Assembly: GCF_964213995.1 (NCBI RefSeq)
Contig: NC_135804.1
Location: 59,148,001 to 59,212,000 of the forward strand
Length of the DNA stretch: 64,000 nucleotides
Direction of reading: 5' to 3'
DNA from: Mustelus asterias
Taxonomy: Eukaryota
Part shown: in pieces, positions 687 through 57,500 of the stretch
How the letters are laid out: each line of letters opens with the position of its first letter
Position numbering within the stretch: position 1 is the first letter of the stretch
Notes under the pieces: model-generated
Database searches by the model: none
Told to the model about the DNA's origin: nothing
Seen by the model: the letters and a program-made list of their open reading frames with translations, nothing else
Position numbers and translations under genes: made by a program

Positions 687-2930
687 TTACTGATAGTGTG
701 ACATAAATCCAACATCCCTGTTTAGGCTGTCCTCATGTGTGCGGAACTTGGCTATCAGTTTCTGCTCAGCAACTCTGCGCTGTCATGTGTCATGAAGGCC
801 GCCTTGGAGAACGCTTACCCGAAGATCAGAGGCTGAATGCCCGTGACCGCTGAAGTGCTCCCCCACAGGAAGAGAACAGCCTTGCCTGGTGATTGTCGAG
901 TGGTGTTCATTCATCCATTGTCATAGCATCTGCATGGTTTCCCCAATGTACCATGCCTCGGGACATCCTTTCCTGCAGCGTATCAGGTAGACAACATTGG
1001 CCGAGTTGCAAGAATAGGTACCGTGTACCTGGCAGATGGTGTTCTCATGTGAGATGATGGCATCCGTGTTGATGATCCGGCATGTCTTGCAGAGATTGCT
1101 GTGGCAGGGTTGTGTGGTGTTGTGGTCACTGTTCTCCTGAAGGTTGGGTAGTTTGCTACGGACAATGGTTTGTTTGAGGTTGTGCGGTTGTTTGAAGGCA
1201 AGAAGTGGGGGTGTGGGGATGGCCTTGGCGAGATGTTCGTCTTCATTAATGACATGTTGAAGGCTCCAGAGGAGATGCTGTAGCTTTTGCGCTCTGGGGA
1301 AGTACTGGACAACGAAGGGTACTCTGTCCACCGTGTCCTGTGTTTGTCTTCTGAGGAGGTTGTTGCAGTTTTTCACTGTGGCGCGTCGGAACTGTCGATC
1401 GATGCGTCGAGCGCCATATCCTGTTCCTATGAGGGCATATTTCAGCATCTGGAGGTGTCTGTTGTGATCCTCCTCATCCGAGCAGATCCTATGTATACAG
1501 AGGGCTTGTCCACAGGGGATGGCTTGTTTAATGTGTTTAGGGTGGAAGCTGGAGAAGTGGCGCATCGTGAGGTTATCCGTGGGCTTGCGGCACAGTGAGG
1601 TGCTGAGGTGACCGTCCTTAATGGAGATGCATGTGTCCAAGAATGCAACTGATTCTGGAGAGTAGCCCATGGTGAGTCTGATGGTGGGATGGAAGTTGTT
1701 GATGTCATCATATAGTTGTTTCAGTGCTTGTTCACCATGAGTCCAAAGGAAGAAAATGTCATCGATGTATCTAGTGTATAGCATCGGTTGAAGGTCCTGT
1801 GCAGTGAAGAAGTCTTGTTCGAACCTGTGCATGAAGATGTTGGCATATTGAGGTGCGAATTTGCTCCCCATGGCTGTTCCATGTGTCTGGATGAAGAACT
1901 GGTTGTTGAAGGTGAAGACATTGTGTTCCAGGATGAAGTGGATGAGTTGTAAAATTGCATCTGGAAACTGGCAGTTGTCGGCGTTGAGTACTGAGGCTGT
2001 TGCAGCAATGCCATCATCGTGGGGGTTGCTGGTGTAGACATCCATTGTGACGAGGAGTGCTCCTGGTTCAACTGCTCCATGTGTGTTCAGTTTGTGTAGG
2101 AAGTCTGTAGTGTCGCGACCAAAGGTGGGGGTTCTTTGTACAATGGGTTTCAGGATGCCCTCGACATAGCCGGAGAGGTTCTCGCACAGGGTCCCATTGC
2201 CCGATACGATGGGACAGCCGGGTGTATTTGCCTTGTGTATCTTCGGGAGGCAGTAGAGATCTCCAACACGGGGAGTACGTGGGATGAGAGACGGAGGGTG
2301 CTCTGAAGGTCTGGATCAAAGGTCTTGATCAGAGTGTTGAGTTGACAGGTGTGTTCTTTGGTCGGATCTGTGGGTAACTGTCTGTAGTGTTCCTCGTTGT
2401 TCAGTTGTTGGTACACTTCTTTGCAGTAATCTGTTCTGTTCAGTATGGCGATGGCCCCTCCTTTGTCTGCTGCTTTGATGACAATGTTGCGGTTGGTCTT
2501 GAGAGCGTGGATGGCATTGCGTTGTGCTTGGGTGACGTTCGGGGCTGTCTTGTGAGTGCGGCTAATGAATTTGGTGTTGATGCACCTCCTGATGGCTTGG
2601 GCATACATGTCAAGTCGAGGGCAGCAGCCTTCTGGAGGAGTCCAATTTGACTCTTTCCTCTTCGGTTGCACTGCGGATCTCTCTGTCGGCTGTTCCGGTT
2701 CATTGGCTGTCTCATTGTGTTCGTTGTTGGCCTCTTGGGGTTTGTGGAAGAACTCCCGTAGCCTCATTTGCCTGATGAATTCCTCTGTGTCTGCTGCGAG
2801 ACTAATGGGGTCTATTTTGGTGGTGGGGCAAAAATTGAGCCCTCGGCTGAGAACTTCGATTCCATCTGGTTGACGTGTGCAGTCCGACAAGTTGACAATA
2901 GACTTCCCTGCGGTGGTACGGTTTTCTACT
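687..2930 (-). pseudogene. Disrupted PLE RT/GIY-YIG polyprotein
   Basis: Frameshift near 2290, and an in-frame TGA at 921-923 where the copy at about 13010 reads CGA (QTLRQR). Confidence 0.85.
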
Positions 2931-3063
2931 GATCTTCGGGTAAGCGTTCTCCAAGGCGGCTTTAACGACAGACGACAAAGCAGAGTCGCTGAGCAGAAAC
3001 TGATAGCCAAGTTCCGCACACATGAGGACAGCCTAAACCGGGATCTTGGGTTTATGTCACACT

Positions 3064-3370
3064 CAAAGACTATTTCCTCGGGTGGATGGAGCTATTACAA
3101 GGGGGCATAACTATAGGGTTCATGGTGGGAGATATAGGAAGGATATCAGAGGTAGGTTCTTTATGCAGAGAGTGGTTGGGGTGTGGAATGGACTGCCTGC
3201 AGTGATAGTGGAGTCAGACACTTTAGGAACATTTAAGCGGTTATTGGATAGGCACATGGAGCACACCAGGATGATAGGGAGTGGGATAGCTTGATCTTGG
3301 TTTCAGATAAAGCTCGGCACAACATCGTGGGCCGAAGGGCCTGTTCTGTGCTGTACTGTTCTATGTTCTA
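3064..3370 (+). mobile_element. 5'-truncated CR1 3' end inserted in the PLE; same subfamily as the full-length copy at 49795-54540
   Basis: Encodes QRLFPRVDGAITRGHNYRV...HMEHTRMIGSGIA*, nearly identical to the end of ORF 49878-52892. Ends in a CTATGTT-type tail. Confidence 0.9.
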
Positions 3371-12589: not shown

Positions 12590-13365
12590 GGTGGATATCT
12601 GTTCTCCAACAGTGCACAGACACAGAAATCAGTTACAGAATACTAATTAGAATGCAAATCTCTACAGCCAGCCAGGTCTTAAAGGTACAGATAATGTGGG
12701 TGGAGGGAGCATTCAATACAGGTTAAAGAGATGTGTATTGTCTCCAGACAGAACAGCTAGTGAGATTCTACAAGCCCAGGAGGCAAGCTGTGGGGGTTAC
12801 TGATAATGTGACATAAATCCAACATCCCGGTTTAGGCCGTCCTCATGTGTGCGGAACTTGGCTATCAGTTTCTGCTCAGCGACTCTGCGCTGTCGTGTGT
12901 CATGAAGGCCACCTTGGAGAACGCTTACCTGAAGATCCAAGGCTGAATGCCCGTGACTGCTGAAGTGCTCCCCCACAGGAAGAGAACAGTTTTGCCTGGT
13001 GATTGTCGAGCGGTGTTCATTCATCCGTTGTCGTAGCGTCTGCATGGTTTCCCCAATGTACCATGCCTCGGGACATCCTTTCCTGCAGCGTATCAGGTAG
13101 ACAACGTTGGCCGAGTTGCAAGAGTAGGTACCGTGTACCTGGTTGATGGTGTTCTCACGTGAGATGATGGCATCCTGGGCTTGTAGAATCTCACTAGCTG
13201 TTCTGTCTGGAGACAATACACATCTCTTTAACCTATGTTGAATGCTCCCTCCACCCACATTATCTGTACCTTTAAGACCTGGCTGGCTGTAGAGATTTGC
13301 ATTCTAATTAGTATTCTGTAACTTGATTTCTGTGTCTGTGCACTGTTGGGGAACAGATATGCACC

Positions 13366-13402: not shown

Positions 13403-16400
13403 TATTTGCTACCAAATAAACCTGTTGGACTTTAACCTGGTGTTGTGAGACTTCTTACTCTTCTGTCATCAAGCCAATTTTGTATCCATTTAGCTACCTC
13501 ACCCGGTATCCCCTGAGATTTAACCTTATGCAACAACCTACCATGCGGTACCTTGTTAAAGGCCTTGCTAAAATCTGTGTAGACAACATTAACTGCACTG
13601 CCCTCATCTACCTTCTTGGTTACCCGTTCAAAAAACTCAATCAAATTTGTGAGACATGATTTTCCACTCACAAATCCATGCTGACTATTCCAAATCAGTC
13701 CTTGCCTGTAAATGCCTGAATGCCTGTAGATCCTGTCTCTCAAAATACCTTCCAACAACTTCCCCACCACAGATGTGAGGCTAACTGGCTGGTAGTTCCC
13801 AGGCTTTTCCATGCAGCCCTTTTTAAACAAAGGCACAACATTTGCCACCCTCCAATCTTCAGGCACCTCACCTGTGACCATCGATGATTCAAATATCTCT
13901 GCTCGGGGGCCCGCAATTTCCTCGCTAGCCTCCCACAATGTCCTGGGATACACTTCATTGGGTCCCGGGGATTTATCTACCTTGATGCATTTTAAGACTT
14001 CCAGCACCTCCTTCTCTGTGATATGTACACTCCTCAATATATCACTCTTTATTTCCCCAAGTTCCCTAACATCGTTGCTCTCCTCAACAGTAAATACTGA
14101 TGACAAATATTCATTTAGGATCTTACCCATCTCTTGTGAATCTGCACATAGTTGATCTTGTTGGTTCTTAAGAGGCCCTACACTCTCTCCAGTTACTCTT
14201 TTGGTCTTTATGTATTTGTAGAAGCTCTTTGGATTCTTATCTGCCAAAACAATCTCGTGTCCCCTTTTTGCCCTCCTGATCTCTCTCTTAACTCTACTCC
14301 TACACCTCCTATACTCTTCAATGGATTCACTTGATCCCTGCAGTCTATGCATGTCATGTGCCTCCTTCTTCTTCTTGACCAGGGCCTCAATATCCTGAGT
14401 CATCCAGGGTTCCCTACCTCTACCATCCTTGCCCTTCACTCTAAGAGGAAAGTGCTTACCCTGAATCCTGGTTAACACTCTTTTGCAAGCTTCCTACTTA
14501 CCAGACGTCCTTTTGCCTTCCCACAGTCTCCCCCAATTAACTTTAGAAAGTTCCTGCCTGATACCCTCAGAATCAACCTTGCCCCAATTTAGGATGTTTA
14601 ATTTCTGACCTTATTTATGGTCCCTCTTGCTGTTTTATGGACCAGCCCCTTGCCAATTTAATTTAAACACCAACCCAGTAAAAGCTAACCTCTCTGCTTT
14701 GCTTGGGTGCAAGCCATCCAACTTGTACAGGTGTCTTTTCCCCAAAACTGGCCCAAATGCCCTAATAAACTGCAAACCCCTCCTCCTGCATCATTTCTCC
14801 AGTCACATATTCATCTGCGCTATTTTTCTATTTGTGTCCTCACATCTGCACTAGTTTCATGTTTGTGGCCTCACTTGCATGTAGCACTGAGAGTAACCTC
14901 GAAATTATTACTCTAGTGGTTCTGTTTTGTAATCTATTTCCTAACTCCTGAAACTCCACCTGAAGGATCTCAACACTTTCTCTACTTGATGTTCGACAGA
15001 GGTTCGAGGAATCTTTTGATTTCTTGACAACTTTCTGGCTCAAGATTGAGTTCAACAATTTCAGATCATGGCAACTGCTTCCATTTCATTGTGTTGGCAG
15101 CAGTTCTGCTGTTGCCATTTACAGTTCCTCTGGACTCATGTTCTGTTTTTCCACTTGCCCCATTGTAACCACTTTTTTCTTGCACCATCACCTTTGCCAA
15201 TTAATCATTTCTGTTGTTCACCCAGTCGCAGTCCTGTTGTTTTATTTCCTCTCCGGTCTCCGCACTTCCTTATAAACTGCAGCACTCATTTTTTTCTGAT
15301 TTTGATGAAAGGCCATCTACTTGAAACAGACTGATTCTCTCTCCACAGTCGCCACTTGACCTGCTGCATATTACCAGTGTTTTCTCTTATTTCTTATATA
15401 ATTTTGCTAACTAAACTTTGATAGAGAATTCTCTTTAGGAATTTACATTGCAGGCTCAGAGATGCTGGGTAATAGCATATCAGGCAAGGACAGAATTTAC
15501 GGTAGACATTGGTGACAACAATATTTTATCAGACAAGGACAGAATTTACTATGGACTTTTCGACATGTTTTCAACTCAGCTGCTGATATGAACACATGTA
15601 GGCAAGTCAGCTTCAAGTAAGGACACCAACAGCTTCCAAGAAATGCAGAAAACACTTCATAAAAAACCATCACCTTAACAAGAAAAATTAGAGAAGTAAT
15701 CAGAAGAAAAGTGAACGATTTTTGTCTATGATACTACTAGCTTCCCTAAAAACTGGCAAGCACAAGAAAAAGTTGTTTCTATGGACGGTACATGGAACTA
15801 CCCTGCCTACGCTGAAAGCCCAAATGTCGCATGCTTGTTCTGTCTTATCAGGTGGGTTTCAGCAGAGAGTGGTGCATGTGAAAATCGAAGTTTGGCACTG
15901 CAGTCAATGTTAATCGCACATAAAAATCAAATACCTTATAAAACCTCAACAAGCCCGATTAATGAAATCAGAAAACAAAATAAACAAATCAGAGTTACGG
16001 CATTGGGAACCCGTGTGCACTTGGAACCATTCTTATCAAAAAGCAACTAATACAATTGTCACACAGCATACTTTCTTTCCACGTTACCTACCAATGCTGA
16101 ACTTGCCCAGAATTAACTTCCATGTGGTTTATAAGCTGAGGTAGACTATAGAGACATAATTGCGTTTAGCAGCAAGCAGCTTGCACGTAGTAACAAATTT
16201 AAATGACACTGTTACTCGTGGAGATTACTGTAATCAATATCGCTTAAAAAAGTAAATTCCATAGCCACTAGTACAGAAACTAGTTTCAATGTAAACATAA
16301 TTATTCATTCTGGGATCAGAAGATTATGAACAGATGTTATGCAGAATGGTGTCAGAATCCACCAAAGCCTTCAAGAGGTATCAACTTTTCTGCGTCATAA

Positions 16401-26596: not shown

Positions 26597-27489
26597 GTCC
26601 CCTCGCTAACAGGTACAACGTTTTGGGTACTTTTGGGAGGGGGAGTGGGGGTGATAACAGTTCAGTGAAGCAAAAGAGCAGCAGCCAGGCCTATGGCACC
26701 ACAACTGGCTTTGCTGTAGAGCAGGGTCGGGCAAAGTCCAAGCGAGTGATAGTTCTAGGAGACTCGCTAGTTAAGATACAGACAAGTGTTTCTGTGGCCG
26801 CGGTCAAAACTCCAGGATGGTGTGTTGCCTCCCTGGTGCCAGGGTCAAGGACGTTTCTGAGTGGTTGCATGAAATTTTTAAGGGGGAGGATAAACAGCCA
26901 GCGGTCGTTGTGCACATTTGTACCAACGACATTGGTAGAAAGATGGATGAGGTGCTGCAAAGAGAGTATAGGGAATTAGGAAAGAGGCTGGAAAGCAAGA
27001 CTTCGAGGGTAGTAACCTCTGGATTACGACCAGTGCTATGTGCTGGTGAGGCAAGGAATAATAAAATAGGGCAGCTGAATGCGTGGCTAAGGAGCTCGTG
27101 CCTAGGGAAGAGTTTCACGCTCTGGGATGATTTGGGATTTCTTCTGGGGCACGGCTGACCTGTACAGGGACAGGTTGCAGCTAAACAGGAGGTGAACCAG
27201 CATCCTTGCCGGGAGGTTCGCTAGCGCTATTCGGGTGAATTTATACAAGAGTGGCAGGCGGCTGGGAACCAGAGCAGGAGGACAGCAAGTGGAAGGATTG
27301 AAGAGATGGTGGATGTTAGGACCAGTAAGTCTGAAAGGAAGGACAGGCAGGGATAGGTTAATAAAGATGATGGGCTGAAGTGTGCTTCTTTCAACGCAAG
27401 GTGCGTTATGAGTAAGGCAGACGAGCTTAGAGCCTGGATCAATACATGGGACTATGATGTTGCGGCCAGACAGAGACTTGTTTGAGAGA

Positions 27490-49418: not shown

Positions 49419-49877
49419 TACCCTATGTAAACCCCAGGTTATCAACAGTCTGTCGCCCATTTTTTCCCTCTCATCAAGTTCCCTCATCCATTTACTCTCT
49501 GCTCGCTAATCTACATTTGCTCCCAACTAAGCAATTGCATTTTTCAAATCCTCAAGCTGCTTTTCATGACCTGTCCCCTTCCTCCTTCTGTAATCCTCTC
49601 CAGCCACAGAACAGGCGGAGGTCTCCGAACTCCTCTAATTCTGGCCTCTCCAACATCCCCAATTTTCACTGCTTAACCATTGGCAGCGTGCGTTCATCTG
49701 GCAAAAATCTCTAATTCCCCTCTGAACCCTTCTGCCTCCACTTCTTTTTCCTCCTTTTAGATACTTCTTTGATGAAGTTTTATCGCCCATGATATAGAAC
49801 ATAGAACATAGAACAGTACAGCACAGAACAGGCCCTTCGGCCCACGATGTTGTGCCGAGCTTTATCTGAAACCAAGA

Positions 49878-52781
49878 TCAAGCTATCCCACTCCCTATCA
49901 TCCTGGTGTGCTCCATGTGCCTATCCAATAACCGCTTAAATGTTTCTAAAGTGTCTGACTCCACTATCACTGCAGGCAGTCCATTCCACACCCCAACCAC
50001 TCTCTGCGTAAAGAACCTACCTCTGATATCCGTCCTGTATCTCCCACCACGAACCCTATAGTTATGCCCCCTTGTAATAGCTCCATCCACCCGAGGAAAT
50101 AGTCTTTGAACGTTCACTCTATCTATCCCCTTCATCATTTTATACACCTCTATTAAGTCTCCCCTCAGCCTCCTCCGCTCCAGAGAGAACAGCCCTAGCT
50201 CCCTCAACCTTTCCTCATATGACCTACCCTCCAAACCAGGCAGCATCCTGGTAAATCTCCTCTGCACTCTTTCCAGCGCTTCCACATCCTTCTTATAGTG
50301 AGGTGACCAGAACTGCACACAATATTCCAAATGTGGTCTCACCAAGGTCCTGTACAGTTGCAGCATAACCCCACGGCTCTTAAACTCCAACCCCCTGTTA
50401 ATAAAAGCTAACACACTATAGGCCTTCTTCACAGCTCTATCCACTTGAGTGGCAACCTTTAGAGATCTGTGGATATGGACCCCAAGATCTCTCTGTTCCT
50501 CCACAGTCTTCAAAACCCTACCTTTGACCCTGTAATCCACATTTAAATTTGTCCTACCAAAATGAATCACCTCACATTTATCAGGGTTAAACTCCATTTG
50601 CCATTTTTCAGCCCAGCTTTGCATCCTATCTATGTCTCTTTGCAGCCTACAACAGCCCTCCACCTCATCCACTACTCCACCAATCTTGGTGTCATCAGCA
50701 AATTTACTGATCCACCCTTCAGCCCCCTCCTCTAAGTCATTAATAAAAATCACAAAGAGCAGAGGACCAAGCACTGATCCCTGCGGCACACCGCTAGCAA
50801 CCTGCCTCCAATCCGAAAATTTTCCATCGGCCACCACCCTCTGTCTTCGGTCAGACAGCCAGTTACCTATCCAATCGGCCAACTTTCCCTCTATCCCACA
50901 CCTCCTCACTTTCATCATAAGCCGACCATGGGGGACCTTATCAAACACCTTACTAAAATCCATGTATATGACATCAACTGCCCTACCTTCATCAACACAC
51001 TTAGTTACCTCCTCAAAAAATTCTATCAAATTTGTGAGGCACGATTTGCCCTTCACGAATCCGTGCTGACTATCTCGAATTAATCCGCATCTTTCTAAAT
51101 GGTCGTAAATCCCATCCCTAAGGACCCTTTCCATCAATTTACCAACCACCGAAGTAAGACTAACCGGTCTATAATTACCAGGGTCATTTCTATTCCCTTT
51201 CTTAAACAGAGGAACAACATTCGCCATTCTCCAGTCCTCTGGCACCATCCCCGTGGACAGCGAGGACCCAAAGATCAACGCCAAAGGCTCTGCAATCTCA
51301 TCCCTTGCCTCCCACAGAATCCTAGGATACATTTCATCAGGCCCAGGGGACTTATCGACCTTCAGTTTATTCAAAACTGCCAAGACATCCTCCCTCCGAA
51401 CATCTATTTCCTCCAGCCTATTAGCCTGTAACACCGTCTCTTCCTCAAAAACATGGCCCCTCTCCTTGGTGAACACTGAAGAAAAGTATTCATTCATCAC
51501 CTCGCCTATCTCTACTGACTCCATACACAAGTTCCCACTACTGTCCTTGACCGGCCCTAACCTCACCCTGGTCATTCTTTTATTCCTCACATAAGAGTAA
51601 AAAGCCTTGGGGTTTTCCTTGATCCGACCCGCCAAGGACTTCTCATGTCCCCTCCTAGCTCTCCTAAGCCCCTTTTTCAGCTCATTCCTTACTAACTTGT
51701 AACCCTCAATCGAGCCATCTGAACCTTGTTTCCTCATCCCTACATAAACTTCCCTCTTCCTTTTCACAAGACATTCCACCTCTTTTGTGAACCATGGTTC
51801 CCTCACTCGGCCATTTCCTCCCTGCCTGACAGGAACATACCTATCAAGGACATCCAGTATTTGTTCCTTGAAAAAGTTCCACTTTTCATTAGTTCCTTTC
51901 TCTGACAGTTTCTGTTCCCAACTTATGCCCCCTAATTCTTGCCTAATCGCATCATAATTACCCCTCCCCCAATTGTAAACCTTGCCCTGCCGTACGGCCC
52001 TATCCCTCTCCATTGCAATAACAAAAGACACCGAATTGTGGTCACTATCTCCAAATTGCTCTCCCACAACCAAATCTAACACTTGGCCTGGTTCATTTCC
52101 CCGTACCAAATCCAATGTGGCCTCACCTCTAGTCGGCCCATCCACATATTGTGTCAGGAAACCCTCCCGCACACACTGCACAAAAACTGCCCCATCCAAA
52201 CTATTTGACCTACAAAGGTTCCAATCAATATTTGGAAAGTTAAAGTCCCCCATGACAATTACCCTGTGACCCCCACACATATCCATAATCTGCTTAGCAA
52301 TTTCTTCCTCCACATCTCTATTACTATTTGGGGGCCTATAGTAAACTCCTAGCAACGTGACTGCTCCTTTCCTATTTCTAACTTCAGCCCATATTACCTC
52401 AGTGTGCAGATCCCCCACGAAGTGCCTTTCCGCAGCCGTTAAACTATCCTTGATTAACAATGCCACTCCTCCACCTCTTTTACCAGCTTCCCTACACTTA
52501 GTGAAACATCTATACCCCGGAACGTCCAACAACCATTCCTGTCCTTGTTCTACCCATGTCTCCGTAATGGCCACAACATCGTAGTCCCAAGTACCAATCC
52601 ACGCCCCAAGTTCATCTACCTTGTTCCGGATGCTCCTTGCATTGAAGTAGACACACTTCAACCCACCTTCCTGTCTACCAGTACCCACCCTTGACCCTGA
52701 TACCTCCCCCAATACCTCACCACCCTCACTGACTTCTGGACTACAACTCCCTTTCCCACTCCCCTGACAAATTAGTTTAAA
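49878..52781 (-). CDS. CR1 ORF2: APE endonuclease + reverse transcriptase (open from 52892, no ATG upstream of the endonuclease)
   Basis: YFNARS, AITETW, YYRPP, GDFN and SDH endonuclease motifs; [24 protein letters not shown] and FADDTK RT motifs; no stops over 1004 codons. Confidence 0.93.
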   Translation of the reverse strand, partial: FKLICQGSGKGSCSPEVSEGGEVLGEVSGSRVGTGRQEGGLKCVYFNARSIRNKVDELGAWIGTWDYDVVAITETWVEQGQEWLLDVPGYRCFTKCREAGKRGGGVALLIKDSLTAAERHFVGDLHTEVIWAEVRNRKGAVTLLGVYYRPPNSNRDVEEEIAKQIMDMCGGHRVIVMGDFNFPNIDWNLCRSNSLDGAVFVQCVREGFLTQYVDGPTRGEATLDLVRGNEPGQVLDLVVGEQFGDSDHNSVSFVIAMERDRAVRQGKVYNWGRGNYDAIRQELGGISWEQKLSEKGTNEKWNFFKEQILDVLDRYVPVRQGGNGRVREPWFTKEVECLVKRKREVYVGMRKQGSDGSIEGYKLVRNELKKGLRRARRGHEKSLAGRIKENPKAFYSYVRNKRMTRVRLGPVKDSSGNLCMESVEIGEVMNEYFSSVFTKERGHVFEEETVLQANRLEEIDVRREDVLAVLNKLKVDKSPGPDEMYPRILWEARDEIAEPLALIFGSSLSTGMVPEDWRMANVVPLFKKGNRNDPGNYRPVSLTSVVGKLMERVLRDGIYDHLERCGLIRDSQHGFVKGKSCLTNLIEFFEEVTKCVDEGRAVDVIYMDFSKVFDKVPHGRLMMKVRRCGIEGKLADWIGNWLSDRRQRVVADGKFSDWRQVASGVPQGSVLGPLLFVIFINDLEEGAEGWISKFADDTKIGGVVDEVEGCCRLQRDIDRMQSWAEKWQMEFNPDKCEVIHFGRTNLNVDYRVKGRVLKTVEEQRDLGVHIHRSLKVATQVDRAVKKAYSVLAFINRGLEFKSRGVMLQLYRTLVRPHLEYCVQFWSPHYKKDVEALERVQRRFTRMLPGLEGRSYEERLRELGLFSLERRRLRGDLIEVYKMMKGIDRVNVQRLFPRVDGAITRGHNYRVRGGRYRTDIRGRFFTQRVVGVWNGLPAVIVESDTLETFKRLLDRHMEHTRMIGSGIA

Positions 52782-53698
52782 CCCCCCTGAAGAGCCGTAA
52801 CAAATTTCCCTCCGAGGATATTGGTGCCCCTCTGGTTCAGGTGCACCCCATCCTGTTTGTACAGGTCCCACCTTCCCCAGAACGTGTTCCAATTATCCAC
52901 GTATCTGAAACCCTCCCTCCTACACCATCCCTGCAACCACATATTTAACTGCACTCTCTCCCTGTTCCTCAACTCGCTATCACGTGGTACCGGCAACGTA
53001 CCAGAGATGACCACATGTTTCGTCTTGGCTCTCAGCTTCCAGCCCAGCTCCAGAAATTCCTGCTTTAAATCCCCGTCCCTTCTCTTACCTATGTCATTGG
53101 TACCAATGTGCACCACGACTTGTGACTGTTTCCCCTCCCCCTTCAGAATCTGGAAAACACGGTCTGAGACATCACGGACCTTGGCATCCGGTAGGCAACA
53201 TACCATCCGTGAGTCTCTTTTGCTGCCACAGAACCTCCTATCTATCCCTCTAACTAACGAGTCCCCAATAACTATCGCCCTCCCGCTCTCCCCCTTTCCC
53301 TCCCGAGCCACAGAGACGGACACAGTGCTGGAGATCCTCTCACTGCGGCTCCCCACTGGTATGTCATCCCCCTCAACCGTATCCAAAGCGGAATACTTGT
53401 TGCTAAGGGGAACGACCACCGGGGATCCCTGCACGGACTGCTTCCTCCCAGCCCCTCTCACCGTCACCCATCTGTTTTCAATCCTCGGAGTAACTGTATT
53501 CCTAAAGCTTGTGTCTATGGCCATCTCTGCGTCCCTGATGATCCTAAGTTCATCCAACTCCAGCTCCAGTTCCCTAACACGGTTTTGGAGGAGCTGCAGA
53601 TGGGTGCACTTCCCACAGGTGTAATCAGTAGGGACACTGTCGTCGTCCCTCACCTCAAACATAGTGCAAGAGGAACATTGCACTGCCTGCACACCCAT
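52772..53698 (-). CDS. CR1 ORF1: zinc finger/leucine zipper + SGNH esterase
   Basis: CSSC..CGKC zinc finger, LQNRVRELELEL coiled coil, IGDS, HIGTND and DGVH esterase motifs. Confidence 0.92.
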   Translation of the reverse strand: MGVQAVQCSSCTMFEVRDDDSVPTDYTCGKCTHLQLLQNRVRELELELDELRIIRDAEMAIDTSFRNTVTPRIENRWVTVRGAGRKQSVQGSPVVVPLSNKYSALDTVEGDDIPVGSRSERISSTVSVSVAREGKGESGRAIVIGDSLVRGIDRRFCGSKRDSRMVCCLPDAKVRDVSDRVFQILKGEGKQSQVVVHIGTNDIGKRRDGDLKQEFLELGWKLRAKTKHVVISGTLPVPRDSELRNRERVQLNMWLQGWCRREGFRYVDNWNTFWGRWDLYKQDGVHLNQRGTNILGGKFVTALQGGLN

Positions 53699-53891
53699 CC
53701 CCTCTAGATACCTTGCCAGTACCAGGTAGAAAGTGCAAAAATGAATTCAACTCACCCCTGCTCGCCCTTTCAGCCTAAGCCCTGTGAGCCAAAGTCTTAT
53801 AGCTCACACTCTGCTTCCCACACACTCCACTGCCCGCTCCCGACGCTTCCCGATGTATACTGCAGCCTATCTTTTATACTTCACGCGCTTA

Positions 53892-54540
53892 AAAAACCCT
53901 TCCCAGACTCCTTTGCTGCCCACTTCTAGTTTTCACTTTAAACTTGAAAAACTGCTGTTAAAGTAAAGGCCAAAAAAATACACACACTAGCTGACTAATT
54001 AAATAAATAAACAATTCAATTAATCTCTCACCAGCACTGCTGCTTTCAATCACCCCTCTCAGCTTGCTCCAGTGGATCAATGAGGGGGAACCTCCCAGGT
54101 AACTGACTTTTAAAGTTAAAATAAAAACCCTTCCCAGACTCCTTTGCTGCCCACTTCTAGTTTTCACTTTAAACTTGAAAAACTGCTGTTAAAGTGAAGG
54201 CCAAAAAAATACACACACTAGCTGACTAATTAAATAAATAAACAATTCAATTAATCTCTCACCAGCACTGCTGCTTTCAATCACCCCTCTCAGCTTGCTC
54301 CAGTGGATCAATGAGGGGGAACCTCCCGGGTAACTGACTTTTAAAGTTAAAATAAAAACCCTTCCCAGACTCCTTTGCTGCCCACTTCTAGTTTTCACTT
54401 TAAACTTGAAAAACTGCTGTTAAAGTAAAGGCCAAAAAAATACACACACTAGCTGACTAATTAAATAAATAAACAATTCAATTAATCTCTCACCAGCACT
54501 GCTGCTTTCAATCACCCCTCTCAGCTTGCTCCAGTGGATC
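53892..54540 (-). repeat. 231-bp tandem repeat (about 2.8 units) forming the CR1 5' UTR
   Basis: Unit starts at 53892, 54123 and 54354; the copies are almost identical. Confidence 0.95.
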
Positions 54541-57500
54541 TCCTTATTACTTTGGTGTCAATTCATTTCATAACGGTTCAATGAAGTGCCCTAGAAAACG
54601 GAGTGCCATTTTGCTCTGAGTGCTTGGGAGTTAAGGTGAGAGTGGGAGATTAGAAGAATTTGAAGAGAATTAACCTTAAATCTTGTTCGCAATGCTAACA
54701 CAAATGTTTGATATTTTTCCTCGACTGCATATTGCTGGATTAGAAAGTACTTTAGATCTAAAAAAGGTAGAAACAAGGACCCTTAGTGGACTAGCCAGAT
54801 GATTAATTTAGGGCAGATATTAAACCAGTTTAGACTGTTCTTTTGCGAACGGGAAGGCAGAGACTATAAAAACTAAATACCCGATGCCCTCGCACGGAGT
54901 GCCATTTTGCTCTGTGTGCTTGCAAGTTAAGGTGAGTGTGGGAGTTCAGGAAAGTGCAGGAGGGAGTATTGTTGCCTTGTTTCTCTTTACTGTACACACG
55001 TCAGTGAGGGCAGTTGCAGGCCAAGGTAGGAGGAGTGAACATGGGCGGTGAGTCTTTCTCTCTTATTCCTTTCTGACTTCGGAAGTGAAGGCTGGGTAGG
55101 GAAACAGAAATTGTGGAAAGTAAAAATTCGTGGTACAAAAATTAAAGCAAAGGGTATGGAGTTATTTGATTTATTTCCTTTTTTAAGACTTCTAACGTTT
55201 TGAAACTTAAAAGGATTTAGTGATGATGACCGCAGAGCTCGAAGCCGTGGTCTGGTCTTCTTGCTCCATGTGGAAGGCCGGGCAAATTACCCGTGCCGGG
55301 GACCAACGTGTGTGCAGAAGGTGTGTCCAGGTGCAGCTCCTGGAAGCCCGAGCGTCCGAGCTGGAACAGCGGCTGGGGACTCTGTGCATCATCCACGAGT
55401 CTGAGAGCACTGTGGATAGCACGTTTAGAGATATGTTCACACTACAGCTGAAGGCAGCAGGGGAACGGCTGACCCACGGGCAGTCCAAGAGCAACAAACG
55501 GGTAGTTCAGGAGTCTTCTGGGGTCTCGCTCGCAAATCGGTACTCCATTTTGGAGGCTAATGAGGGCGCTGGTTCCTCCAGGGAGTGCGTACGGACCCAA
55601 GCTTCTGGCACCACATGCAGCCTGTCTGTCCTGGGGGTGGGGTGGGGAGAAGCAGGGCATTAGTAATAGGGGATTCTATAGTCAGAGTAACAGATAGGCG
55701 CTACTGTGGCCGTCAACATGACTCCAGGATGGCGTGTTGCCTCCTTGGTGCTAGGGTCTGGGAGGCCACTGAACTGCTGCAAGGCATCCTGAAAGTGAGT
55801 GTGATAAGACAGAAGTCATGGTGCATGTTCGTGCTAATGACATCGTTCAAAAGTTCGAAAGAAGGATGAGGTCTTGCATCAAGCATTAGAGGCTAGGCAG
55901 TGGAATAAAAGGCACGATCTCTTGTTGAGTGATCTCTGGGTTATTCCCAGTGTCACGTGGTAGCGAACACAGAAATAGGAGAATACCGCAGGTGAATGCG
56001 TGGCTTAAGATTTAGTGCAGGAAAGAAGGTTTTAGATTTCTGGATTACTGGGACGAGTTCAGGGAAATGTGAGATGTGTACAAGCGGGATGGTCTACAGC
56101 TGAACCAGGGCAGGACTCATGTCCTTGCGGGACATTTTGCTTGTGCTGTTGGGAGGAGTTTTAACTAATTTGGCAGGAGCAGGGGACACAGACTATGAGC
56201 GGAATAGGGTCACCGCATAATACAATAAGACAATCAAGTCAGAGGGAGAACAGCTTTACCAAGTTTCAAGGGAGTAAGGCAAGGCTGGATGGCCTCTACG
56301 TTAATACCAGGAGTGTTGCAGGTAAAGCAAATGAATTAAGGACGAGGATTGACATGTGGAATTGTAATAATAACCATCGCAAAGATACGGTTGGGAGAGG
56401 GTCAGTACTGGCAATTCAACATCCCGGGATATAGAAACTTCAGGCAAGACAGAGGAGTGGGAAAGAGAGGAGCAAGCATTGAATTATTAGTTAAGGAGTC
56501 AGTTGCTGCAGTAAGGAGAGTTGCTATCTTCGAAGGGGCATTGAATGAAGCTTTGTGGGTAGAACTTAGGAATAAAAAATAAAGCCACATTGCTAGGTGT
56601 TTATTATAAACCCCAAAGAGTCAGTTGGAATTTGAGGGGCTAATATGTGTACAATATGCAAAGGCCTGTGAAAATAATAACAGTAGGATAATTATAATAG
56701 GTGATTTCAACTTTCCCAACATTAACTGGATAAACATAATGTTAAGGATTTGACTGGAGTAGATATTTTGAAATGCGTGGAGGAGAACTTTAGGCCAATA
56801 TGTAGAGCGTCCGACAAGGGAAGGAGCTGTGCTGGGCCTAATTCTGGAGAATGAAGCCGAACAAGTGGTTGAGCTGGTAGTGTGGGATCATTTTAGTGGT
56901 AGCGACCAGATCATGGTATGATTTAAGCTTGTTATGGACAAAGAAATATACAACTTCCCAAAAAGGTTTTGGATTGGGCAGAGCGGAGTTTAAGAAATGA
57001 GACAGGATCTTGCTAAGGCAATCTACGAACAGCTACAATTGGGGAAATCTACAGAAGAACAATGGGGGTGTTCAAATAGGAAATAGAGGGGGTACAAGCC
57101 CAGCATGTTCCAAGTAGGGTGATGGGAAAGAGTAACAATCCCAGAGAACCATGGATGACCAGATATATTCAAGGCAAGATGCAAAGGAAAAGAAAAGCTT
57201 TTAGCAGTTACAAGGAGACCAAATCAGCAGAGTCATTAGTGAAATACAGAACATGCAGGGCAGACTGTAAGAAAGCAATTTGAAATGCTAAAAGGGGACA
57301 TAAGAGAGCTCTGGCTTGTAAAAGTAGGGAAAAACCCAACGTATTCTATAAATATATCAATGGGAAGAGGTTAACCAGGGAAAGAGTAGGGTCCATTAGG
57401 GAGCAAGGGGCCAGTCTGTAGGTGGAGTGAGACAGTATTCAACGAATGCTTCACATCTGCCTTCACCAAGAGAATGAGGATGAAGGTATGGAGCTCAGAA

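Follow-up and report, generated by a model that had tools for sequence, protein, structure and literature searches.

A conserved U_UUA_AAC heptamer at the ORF1-ORF2 junction of CR1 retrotransposons is a likely programmed −1 ribosomal frameshift site

We analyzed a 64,000-nucleotide (nt) stretch of the genome of the shark Mustelus asterias (NC_135804.1, positions 59,148,001 to 59,212,000; hereafter, the window), which carries on its minus strand a full-length, intact and young long interspersed nuclear element (LINE) of the CR1 type. The element's first open reading frame (ORF1) terminates with GGG GGT TTA AAC TAA, and ORF2 lies in the −1 frame relative to ORF1. Comparison of this junction with those of other CR1 copies and lineages suggests that programmed −1 ribosomal frameshifting likely takes place at the heptamer U_UUA_AAC, which would give a 1273-amino acid (aa) ORF1-ORF2 fusion protein. 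An initial annotation of this DNA had proposed such a fusion, with a G-quadruplex (G4) as stimulator and particular junction peptides. The core of that proposal gains strong comparative support at the sequence level, while the quadruplex and the peptides do not.

ORF1 (52772..53698; minus strand, as for all features of this element) begins with the ATG at 53698 and encodes a 308-aa protein with two CxxC motifs, an SGNH/GDSL esterase domain (PF13472, residues 192-291, E = 5.5e-12, 47 bits with a cut-off of 32.9), the motifs GDS, GTND, and DGVH, and the C terminus GGLN. ORF2 (49878..52775, 965 codons from the slip site) encodes an APE endonuclease (PF03372, E = 2.3e-20) and a reverse transcriptase (PF00078, E = 6.3e-32). 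The 3′ tail consists of (GTTCTAT)3 (49794..49814) without poly(A), and a short tandem-repeat 3′ end of this kind is a defining feature of CR1. Named homologues of the window ORF1 are shark and ray proteins. Judged from its domains, its homologues, and the junctions that it shares with CR1-labelled consensus rows, the element is a canonical esterase-type CR1. Near-identical copies are abundant in the 3.68-Gb genome (1431 candidates, of which 40 were scored, all 99-100% identical). The junction was identical in all 30 young copies that were fetched, and 18 of the 30 were open across ORF1 and the 560 ORF2 codons covered. No target-site duplication was identified.

The slippery heptamer T TTA AAC (52775..52781) stands in ORF1 phase as X_XXY_YYZ, as the initial annotation had read it, and is followed directly by the ORF1 stop TAA (52772..52774), which in relatives is TAA, TAG, or TGA. 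A second heptamer, G_GGU_UUA (G GGT TTA, 52778..52784), overlaps the first and is kept in some lineages only, because the codon before TTA varies. Across the window element, in-phase XXXYYYZ heptamers occupy eight of 1269 codon positions, and two of the eight are at the junction. The ORF2 frame stays open between 52892 and 49878; the TTG with which it begins is a mechanical ORF start. The first ATG, earlier placed about 200 codons in, is at 52286, as codon 203 of this open stretch, and lies 165 codons past the TTT of the slip site. As this ATG is downstream of the endonuclease motifs YFNARS (52649) and ITETW (52568), a protein started there would lose part of the endonuclease. Between the slip site and the endonuclease, the −1 frame forms a linker of 42 codons that is free of ATG (52650..52775).

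The window also contains decayed CR1 junctions, at two of which the site had been described as kept. The junction at 14658..14667 (minus strand) reads TTTAAAT TAA and is still XXXYYYZ, with the endonuclease region deleted after it. The one at 56159..56168 (plus strand, subfamily S3) reads TTTTAAC TAA; it is one base off, leaving no canonical heptamer. A further junction that had been missed, TTTATAC AAG at 27240..27249 (plus strand, subfamily S2), is broken. Relatives of these last two copies carry TTTAAAC TAA and TTTAAAC TAG, respectively, and the site is perfect in 22 of 29 relatives of the 56-kb copy and 20 of 29 relatives of the 27-kb copy. In internally deleted CR1 copies, the junction leads almost directly either into the middle of ORF2 (window 14667-14595) or into its 3′ part (locus L302), and the endonuclease is missing. 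A fourth CR1 ORF1/ORF2 remnant in the window (8901-8050, minus strand) has a deleted junction.

Within the shark genome, TTTAAAC followed by a stop was the majority sequence in all seven subfamily alignments and was intact in 145 of 168 copies; two of the seven subfamilies had been retrieved using window copies whose own heptamer is broken. Across the five subfamilies that were compared, ORF1 proteins share 48-58% identity. In old subfamilies, the heptamer was better preserved than the median 7-mer (for example, 14 of 20 copies versus 7 in S7); the majority sequences of S2, S6, and S7 contain stops that resemble CpG decay, with a mix of TGA, CGA, and CAA. In a random 1 Mb, taken as 100 stretches of 10 kb and scored by eye, the ten ORF1 ends comprised six exact sites, two one-base variants, one deletion, and one that was cut off.

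As a sample unbiased with respect to the junction, we searched the genome with P0224, a distant ORF1 homologue that ends in QGN rather than Leu-Asn. From 121 matches, 60 were examined (the top 20 and 40 picked by hand). The first in-frame stop fell exactly 23 codons past the His of the DGxH motif in 47 of the 60 loci, and TTTAAAC preceded it in 44 of these 47. The remaining 13 loci are damaged copies, nine of which retain TTTAAAC, either displaced by indels or with a mutated stop. In total, TTTAAAC was exact in 53 of the 60 loci, a variant was present in six, and the junction was missing from one. At a single locus, L324 (G000:C2:2662300-2664100), changes at the junction fuse ORF1 and ORF2 into one open frame of 596 aa; as a single copy, this is probably an accident.

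The site is also found outside sharks. A metagenome scan returned 29 loci; 17 were read, and 13 bird-type CR1 loci among these extend beyond the ORF1 end. The bird-type ORF1 proteins are 26-36% identical to shark ORF1, and the named matches of the one locus tested are bird proteins. TTTAAAC is kept in 12 of the 13 loci that reach past ORF1. The site is family-wide, with an identical heptamer in shark and bird-type elements. Of the ORF1 proteins that reach their end, 35 of 38 shark-type sequences have LN as the C terminus, as do 96 of 105 bird-type ones. We also compared 100 of 150 listed distant representatives, namely those with new identifiers and a match reaching at least profile position 300. 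Fifty of these end in LN and nine in QGN (P0218, P0224, P0228, P0230, P0232, P0236, P0237, P0259, and P0281); Q precedes GN in all nine, and other endings are FFR, FFH, or KN. At the protein level, a QGN-stop ending would fit G_GGA_AAC, another strong slippery heptamer, and these relatives may use it instead. A search for their DNA yielded none in viral contigs and four unrelated bacterial SGNH matches in genome contigs.

Consensus sequences in the supplement to PMC13343379 contain the same junction. Of 20 text matches to TTTAAACTAA or TTTAAACTAG, 16 were CR1-labelled junctions, in rows with the prefixes AllMis, CroPor, AmiCal, AquCat, LatCha, CalMil, HypSab, PriPec, ScyCan, and SquAca; these are positive-only counts, without a denominator, scored by eye in cells holding the first 400 characters. 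The other four comprised two in 5′ untranslated regions (UTRs), one L2, and one labelled Crack (PMC13343379). The Crack row, AldAff_Crack-2, combines the junction motif of CR1 with an end that is esterase-like, and the rows SquAca_CR1-3 and SquAca_CR1-18 have TTTAAACTAR within the 5′ UTR. Taken together, the junction site is real, ancient, and beyond what chance would produce.

We next consider the level at which the site is constrained. The codon before TTA is GGT, AGT, ACT, GAT, GTT, GCT, TGT, TCT, or CGT, as well as CAT in three copies. Apart from CAT, these codons specify Gly, Ser, Thr, Asp, Val, Ala, Cys, or Arg, and the third base is T in all cases. Since this wobble base is always T despite eight amino acids, the constraint acts on nucleotides. 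As background, T occupies 422 of 1745 third positions (24%), TTA accounts for 19 of 168 Leu codons (11%), and shark and bird sequences are identical at 130 of 467 fourfold sites (28%). Other invariant esterase residues are encoded by mixed codons. The representatives behind these background counts were picked by a TTAAAY-plus-stop pattern; for the Leu and Asn codons this pattern is circular, and in L206 it chose a wrong site. We therefore took only background counts and identities from them, and the P0224 sample serves as the unbiased test.

The reading frame downstream fits a −1 shift. For the phase and fold counts at bird-type loci, we used the TTTAAAC nearest the ORF1 end, checked by eye. 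An endonuclease motif follows in the −1 frame, 38-89 codons past the heptamer, in 13 of the 14 lineages scored and 34 of 37 scorable loci. Upstream, the −1 frame meets a stop five codons away in six of seven shark subfamilies and one to two codons away in six of 12 bird-type loci. With the frame shut one to five codons upstream in 12 of 19 lineages, the F-K-L codons there are hardly reachable except by a shift, and the overlap of the two ORFs is pinned on the heptamer. No ATG lies ahead of the first endonuclease motif in five of seven shark subfamilies and 28 of 34 loci, and there was no conserved near-cognate start codon.

Downstream of the stop is a second conserved element, a G-rich motif (GGGG-NNN-GGG, 52755..52764) that begins 11 nt after the heptamer and is a candidate stimulator. 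All 17 lineages have G at +11, +12, and +13 and 40 of 44 loci have GGG there, with the run beginning at +9 in S7; a second GGG is kept at about +18 to +20. In ORF2, the +11 G falls on the wobble position of codons for Gln, Leu, Lys, Ser, Arg, Gly, or Glu (the Glu codon is that of L216, read as a separate case), so that here again the constraint is on nucleotides. A G-run about 10 nt downstream had been proposed to act as a G-quadruplex. The run is indeed present at 52764 after a 10-nt spacer, but the quadruplex is not conserved: in the G4 mode of ViennaRNA, G4s were predicted in six of the 17 lineages and none in the window family. Only three runs of at least three G occur within 50 nt of the window heptamer, where the G4Hunter score of 1.52 is in the top 1.3% of the element. 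According to a 2016 review, no natural case of stimulation by a G-quadruplex was known (PMC5009743, in the sections consulted, as for all literature cited here). We also considered a long-range partner for the motif and rejected it, as the best duplex, with an ORF1 stretch near 53430, would be unwound by the translating ribosome.

In the coronavirus model, two tRNAs slip in tandem at U_UUA_AAC. By analogy, tRNA-Leu on UUA in the P site and tRNA-Asn on AAC in the A site of a ribosome on CR1 RNA would re-pair on UUU and AAA, and decoding would resume at CUA to give the junction GGLN/LICQ. Under this model, the previously suggested peptide GGFKLICQ is not expected, and the other suggested peptide, GGLK/LICQ, would arise via a slip at G_GGU_UUA or a slip before Asn-tRNA binding. 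This heptamer is among the most shift-prone for mammalian ribosomes (PMC5009743). A minority of ribosomes would shift, making ORF2 the C-terminal part of the fusion (308 + 965 = 1273 aa), while the majority would terminate and release ORF1p, resulting in a ratio like that of Gag to Gag-Pol. The adjacent stop and the G-rich motif together would be the stimulator, with the motif more likely a single-stranded RNA or protein-binding site than a folded G-quadruplex. Through its fused ORF1 part, the reverse transcriptase would be drawn into the ORF1p particle. As ORF1p of ZfL2-1 dimerizes via a coiled coil (PMC3905857), a fused reverse transcriptase could co-assemble into such a particle, as does Gag-Pol. 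For esterase-type CR1 across jawed vertebrates in general, it is possible, although we hold it somewhat short of probable, that a Gag-Pol-like fusion is made with an undescribed stimulator, consisting of the stop together with a G-rich, single-stranded motif whose spacer is fixed at 10 nt and which is perhaps bound by protein.

Several observations weigh against this interpretation. No conserved stem-loop was detected, as z scores ranged from −0.94 to +0.89 in the window and from −2.74 to +2.08 across the 17 lineages; z was below −2 in only two of the 17, and the window folded no better than shuffles, in folds that did not include explicit pseudoknots. Likewise, no canonical stem-loop or pseudoknot was found 5-9 nt downstream. 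The 10-nt spacer exceeds the optimum of 6-8 nt for engineered G4 stimulators (PMC3919603). Scored copy by copy, the phase was −1 in 87 of 109 scorable copies, with 59 unscored and old copies carrying indels. Because the lineages share ancestry, the conservation counts cannot be read as independent events. There are CR1 lineages from which ORF1 has been lost (PMC13343379, section 15), indicating that ORF2p can function unfused there. Moreover, initiation of L1 ORF2 is believed not to depend on its AUG (PMC5009743), so that the absence of an ATG does not by itself force a frameshift. ATGs occur in the linkers of two of seven shark subfamilies. In five of 12 bird-type loci, an ATG lies one to two codons past the heptamer and stop, and reinitiation is therefore open to those loci. 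Five bird-type lineages in which the ORF1 stop is closely followed by an ATG (L195, L196, L197, L200, and L209) still keep the heptamer, and both routes to ORF2 may coexist in them. Finally, none of 172 candidates was a fused, longer homologue, which is weak evidence.

The main alternative is that ribosomes terminate at the ORF1 stop and resume translation a few bases further on, at an AUG if one is present and otherwise at a non-AUG codon, to make a separate ORF2p, with the conserved motif serving as the reinitiation signal. We regard this as unlikely. A fixed restart offset would also account for a constant phase. The AUG-independent initiation of L1 ORF2 speaks for it, as do the ATGs at codon 4 or 5 of the −1 frame in the five bird-type loci, one of which reads TAATG. 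However, adjacent or overlapping stop and AUG codons of the SART1 type were found in five of 12 bird-type loci and in none of the seven shark subfamilies, and in five of these seven no ATG precedes the endonuclease motif. In addition, codons 4-5 of the −1 frame vary freely (ATT, GAG, GAA, GTG, ATA, and AAT; TGT, TGG, AGG, and AGT), while the conserved bases are an exact XXXYYYZ in ORF1 phase, even in the bird-type lineages with an ATG. The G motif is UGGGA-like and lies 3′ of the stop, unlike the termination upstream ribosome-binding site (TURBS) motifs of caliciviruses, which are located 5′ of the stop. The SART1 precedent for reinitiation is an overlapping UAAUG (PMC3894237).

It is also conceivable, though very unlikely, that the motif has another role, for example as a packaging, transcription, or ORF1p-binding signal in the RNA or as a required Leu-Asn end of ORF1p, and that ORF2 is initiated internally. 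The LN at the ORF1 end does not vary, the G motif is unlike any canonical stimulator, and initiation like that at an internal ribosome entry site has been mooted for the ORF2 of elements without long terminal repeats (non-LTR elements) (PMC3894237). But a protein constraint would fix neither TTA, nor AAC, nor the third base of the preceding codon, and the motif lies exactly at the ORF1 stop in slip phase, with the −1 frame open from the heptamer onward and closed just upstream. A spliced RNA for ORF2 is highly improbable, and we rejected this route. Junctions of the TAA type, including that of the window, do read CTAAT...CAG/GGG, as if a branch point preceded a CAG/G acceptor before the G-run. 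However, no AG precedes the G-run in five of 17 lineages (S4, S7, L192, L206, and L209), there is no polypyrimidine tract, and the distance from branch point to AG is <10 nt. Contigs of four runs guessed to be RNA contained no splice-ended joint here, although rare forms would be lost and the contigs may be DNA; one 1757-nt contig, which may likewise be DNA, is unbroken over 52049-53794.

CR1 can be compared with several known systems. Canonical vertebrate CR1 elements likewise have an esterase ORF1, an ORF2 with APE and reverse transcriptase, a short tandem-repeat 3′ tail, and the same junction in consensus rows; in the literature covered they are treated as having two ORFs, and the mode of ORF2 translation is unmentioned (PMC13343379; PMC4316615). 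The word 'frameshift' is absent from the main texts of both papers and from the supplement text searched. The precedent among non-LTR elements is provided by TRE5-A and TRE3-A of Dictyostelium, APE-type elements that are said to need a −1 frameshift for ORF2, as proposed here. They differ from CR1 in clade and host, and no esterase ORF1 is reported for them (PMC5911963). L1 and SART1 resemble CR1 in having a bicistronic LINE RNA and far less ORF2p than ORF1p. Unlike our proposal for CR1, they are described as making a separate ORF2p by initiation or reinitiation (PMC5009743; PMC3894237); the L1 ORFs do not overlap, while SART1 has its overlapping UAAUG.

The heptamer of coronavirus ORF1a/1b is identical to that of CR1, and both coronaviruses and retroviral gag-pol produce an abundant upstream protein and a rare polymerase fusion, as proposed for CR1. 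In contrast to CR1, where none is conserved, these sites have a pseudoknot or stem-loop 5-8 nt downstream. The CR1 site most likely operates in the manner of retroviral or coronaviral −1 frameshifts, yet without the canonical stimulator. In pea enation mosaic virus, it is important that a stop lies close behind the shift site (PMC5009743). [quoted passage not shown] The CR1 G-run at +11 resembles this spacing, a likeness that is geometric only and an analogy rather than evidence; the CR1 motif is G-rich, unlike that of PRRSV, and has no known binding protein.

How LINE ORF2 is translated has yet to be settled (PMC3894237; PMC5009743). In most vertebrates, CR1 is the dominant group of retrotransposons (PMC13343379). 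If our interpretation is correct, the CR1 reverse transcriptase is an ORF1-ORF2 fusion, ORF2 starts are misannotated, with real N-terminal endonuclease motifs preceding the first ATG, and the junction must be retained in CR1 retrotransposition assays. The junction would also represent a compact recoding signal, without recognizable RNA structure, in vertebrate chromosomal DNA. We found no report of a CR1 frameshift in the literature searched, which did not extend to several older key CR1 papers. A paper on turtle CR1 reportedly described the two ORFs as overlapping over a short distance, so that an earlier remark on frameshifting is possible.

Other features of the window and of the searches are recorded here. 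The 5′ UTR of the window element contains an array of a 231-bp unit (53892..54540, minus strand; 2.8 copies, 99% matches), which may be a monomer-type promoter; among 29 young copies, the match extends as far as 54540 in 17. Open frames at 921-3091 and 12797-13303 (both minus strand), which resemble reverse transcriptase and GIY-YIG and include a YIGET motif, look like fragments of Penelope-like elements. Lastly, P0007, a protein named as a Pseudomonas aeruginosa SGNH hydrolase on a 4.2-kb contig, is 70% identical to the window CR1 ORF1 and likely reflects host contamination.

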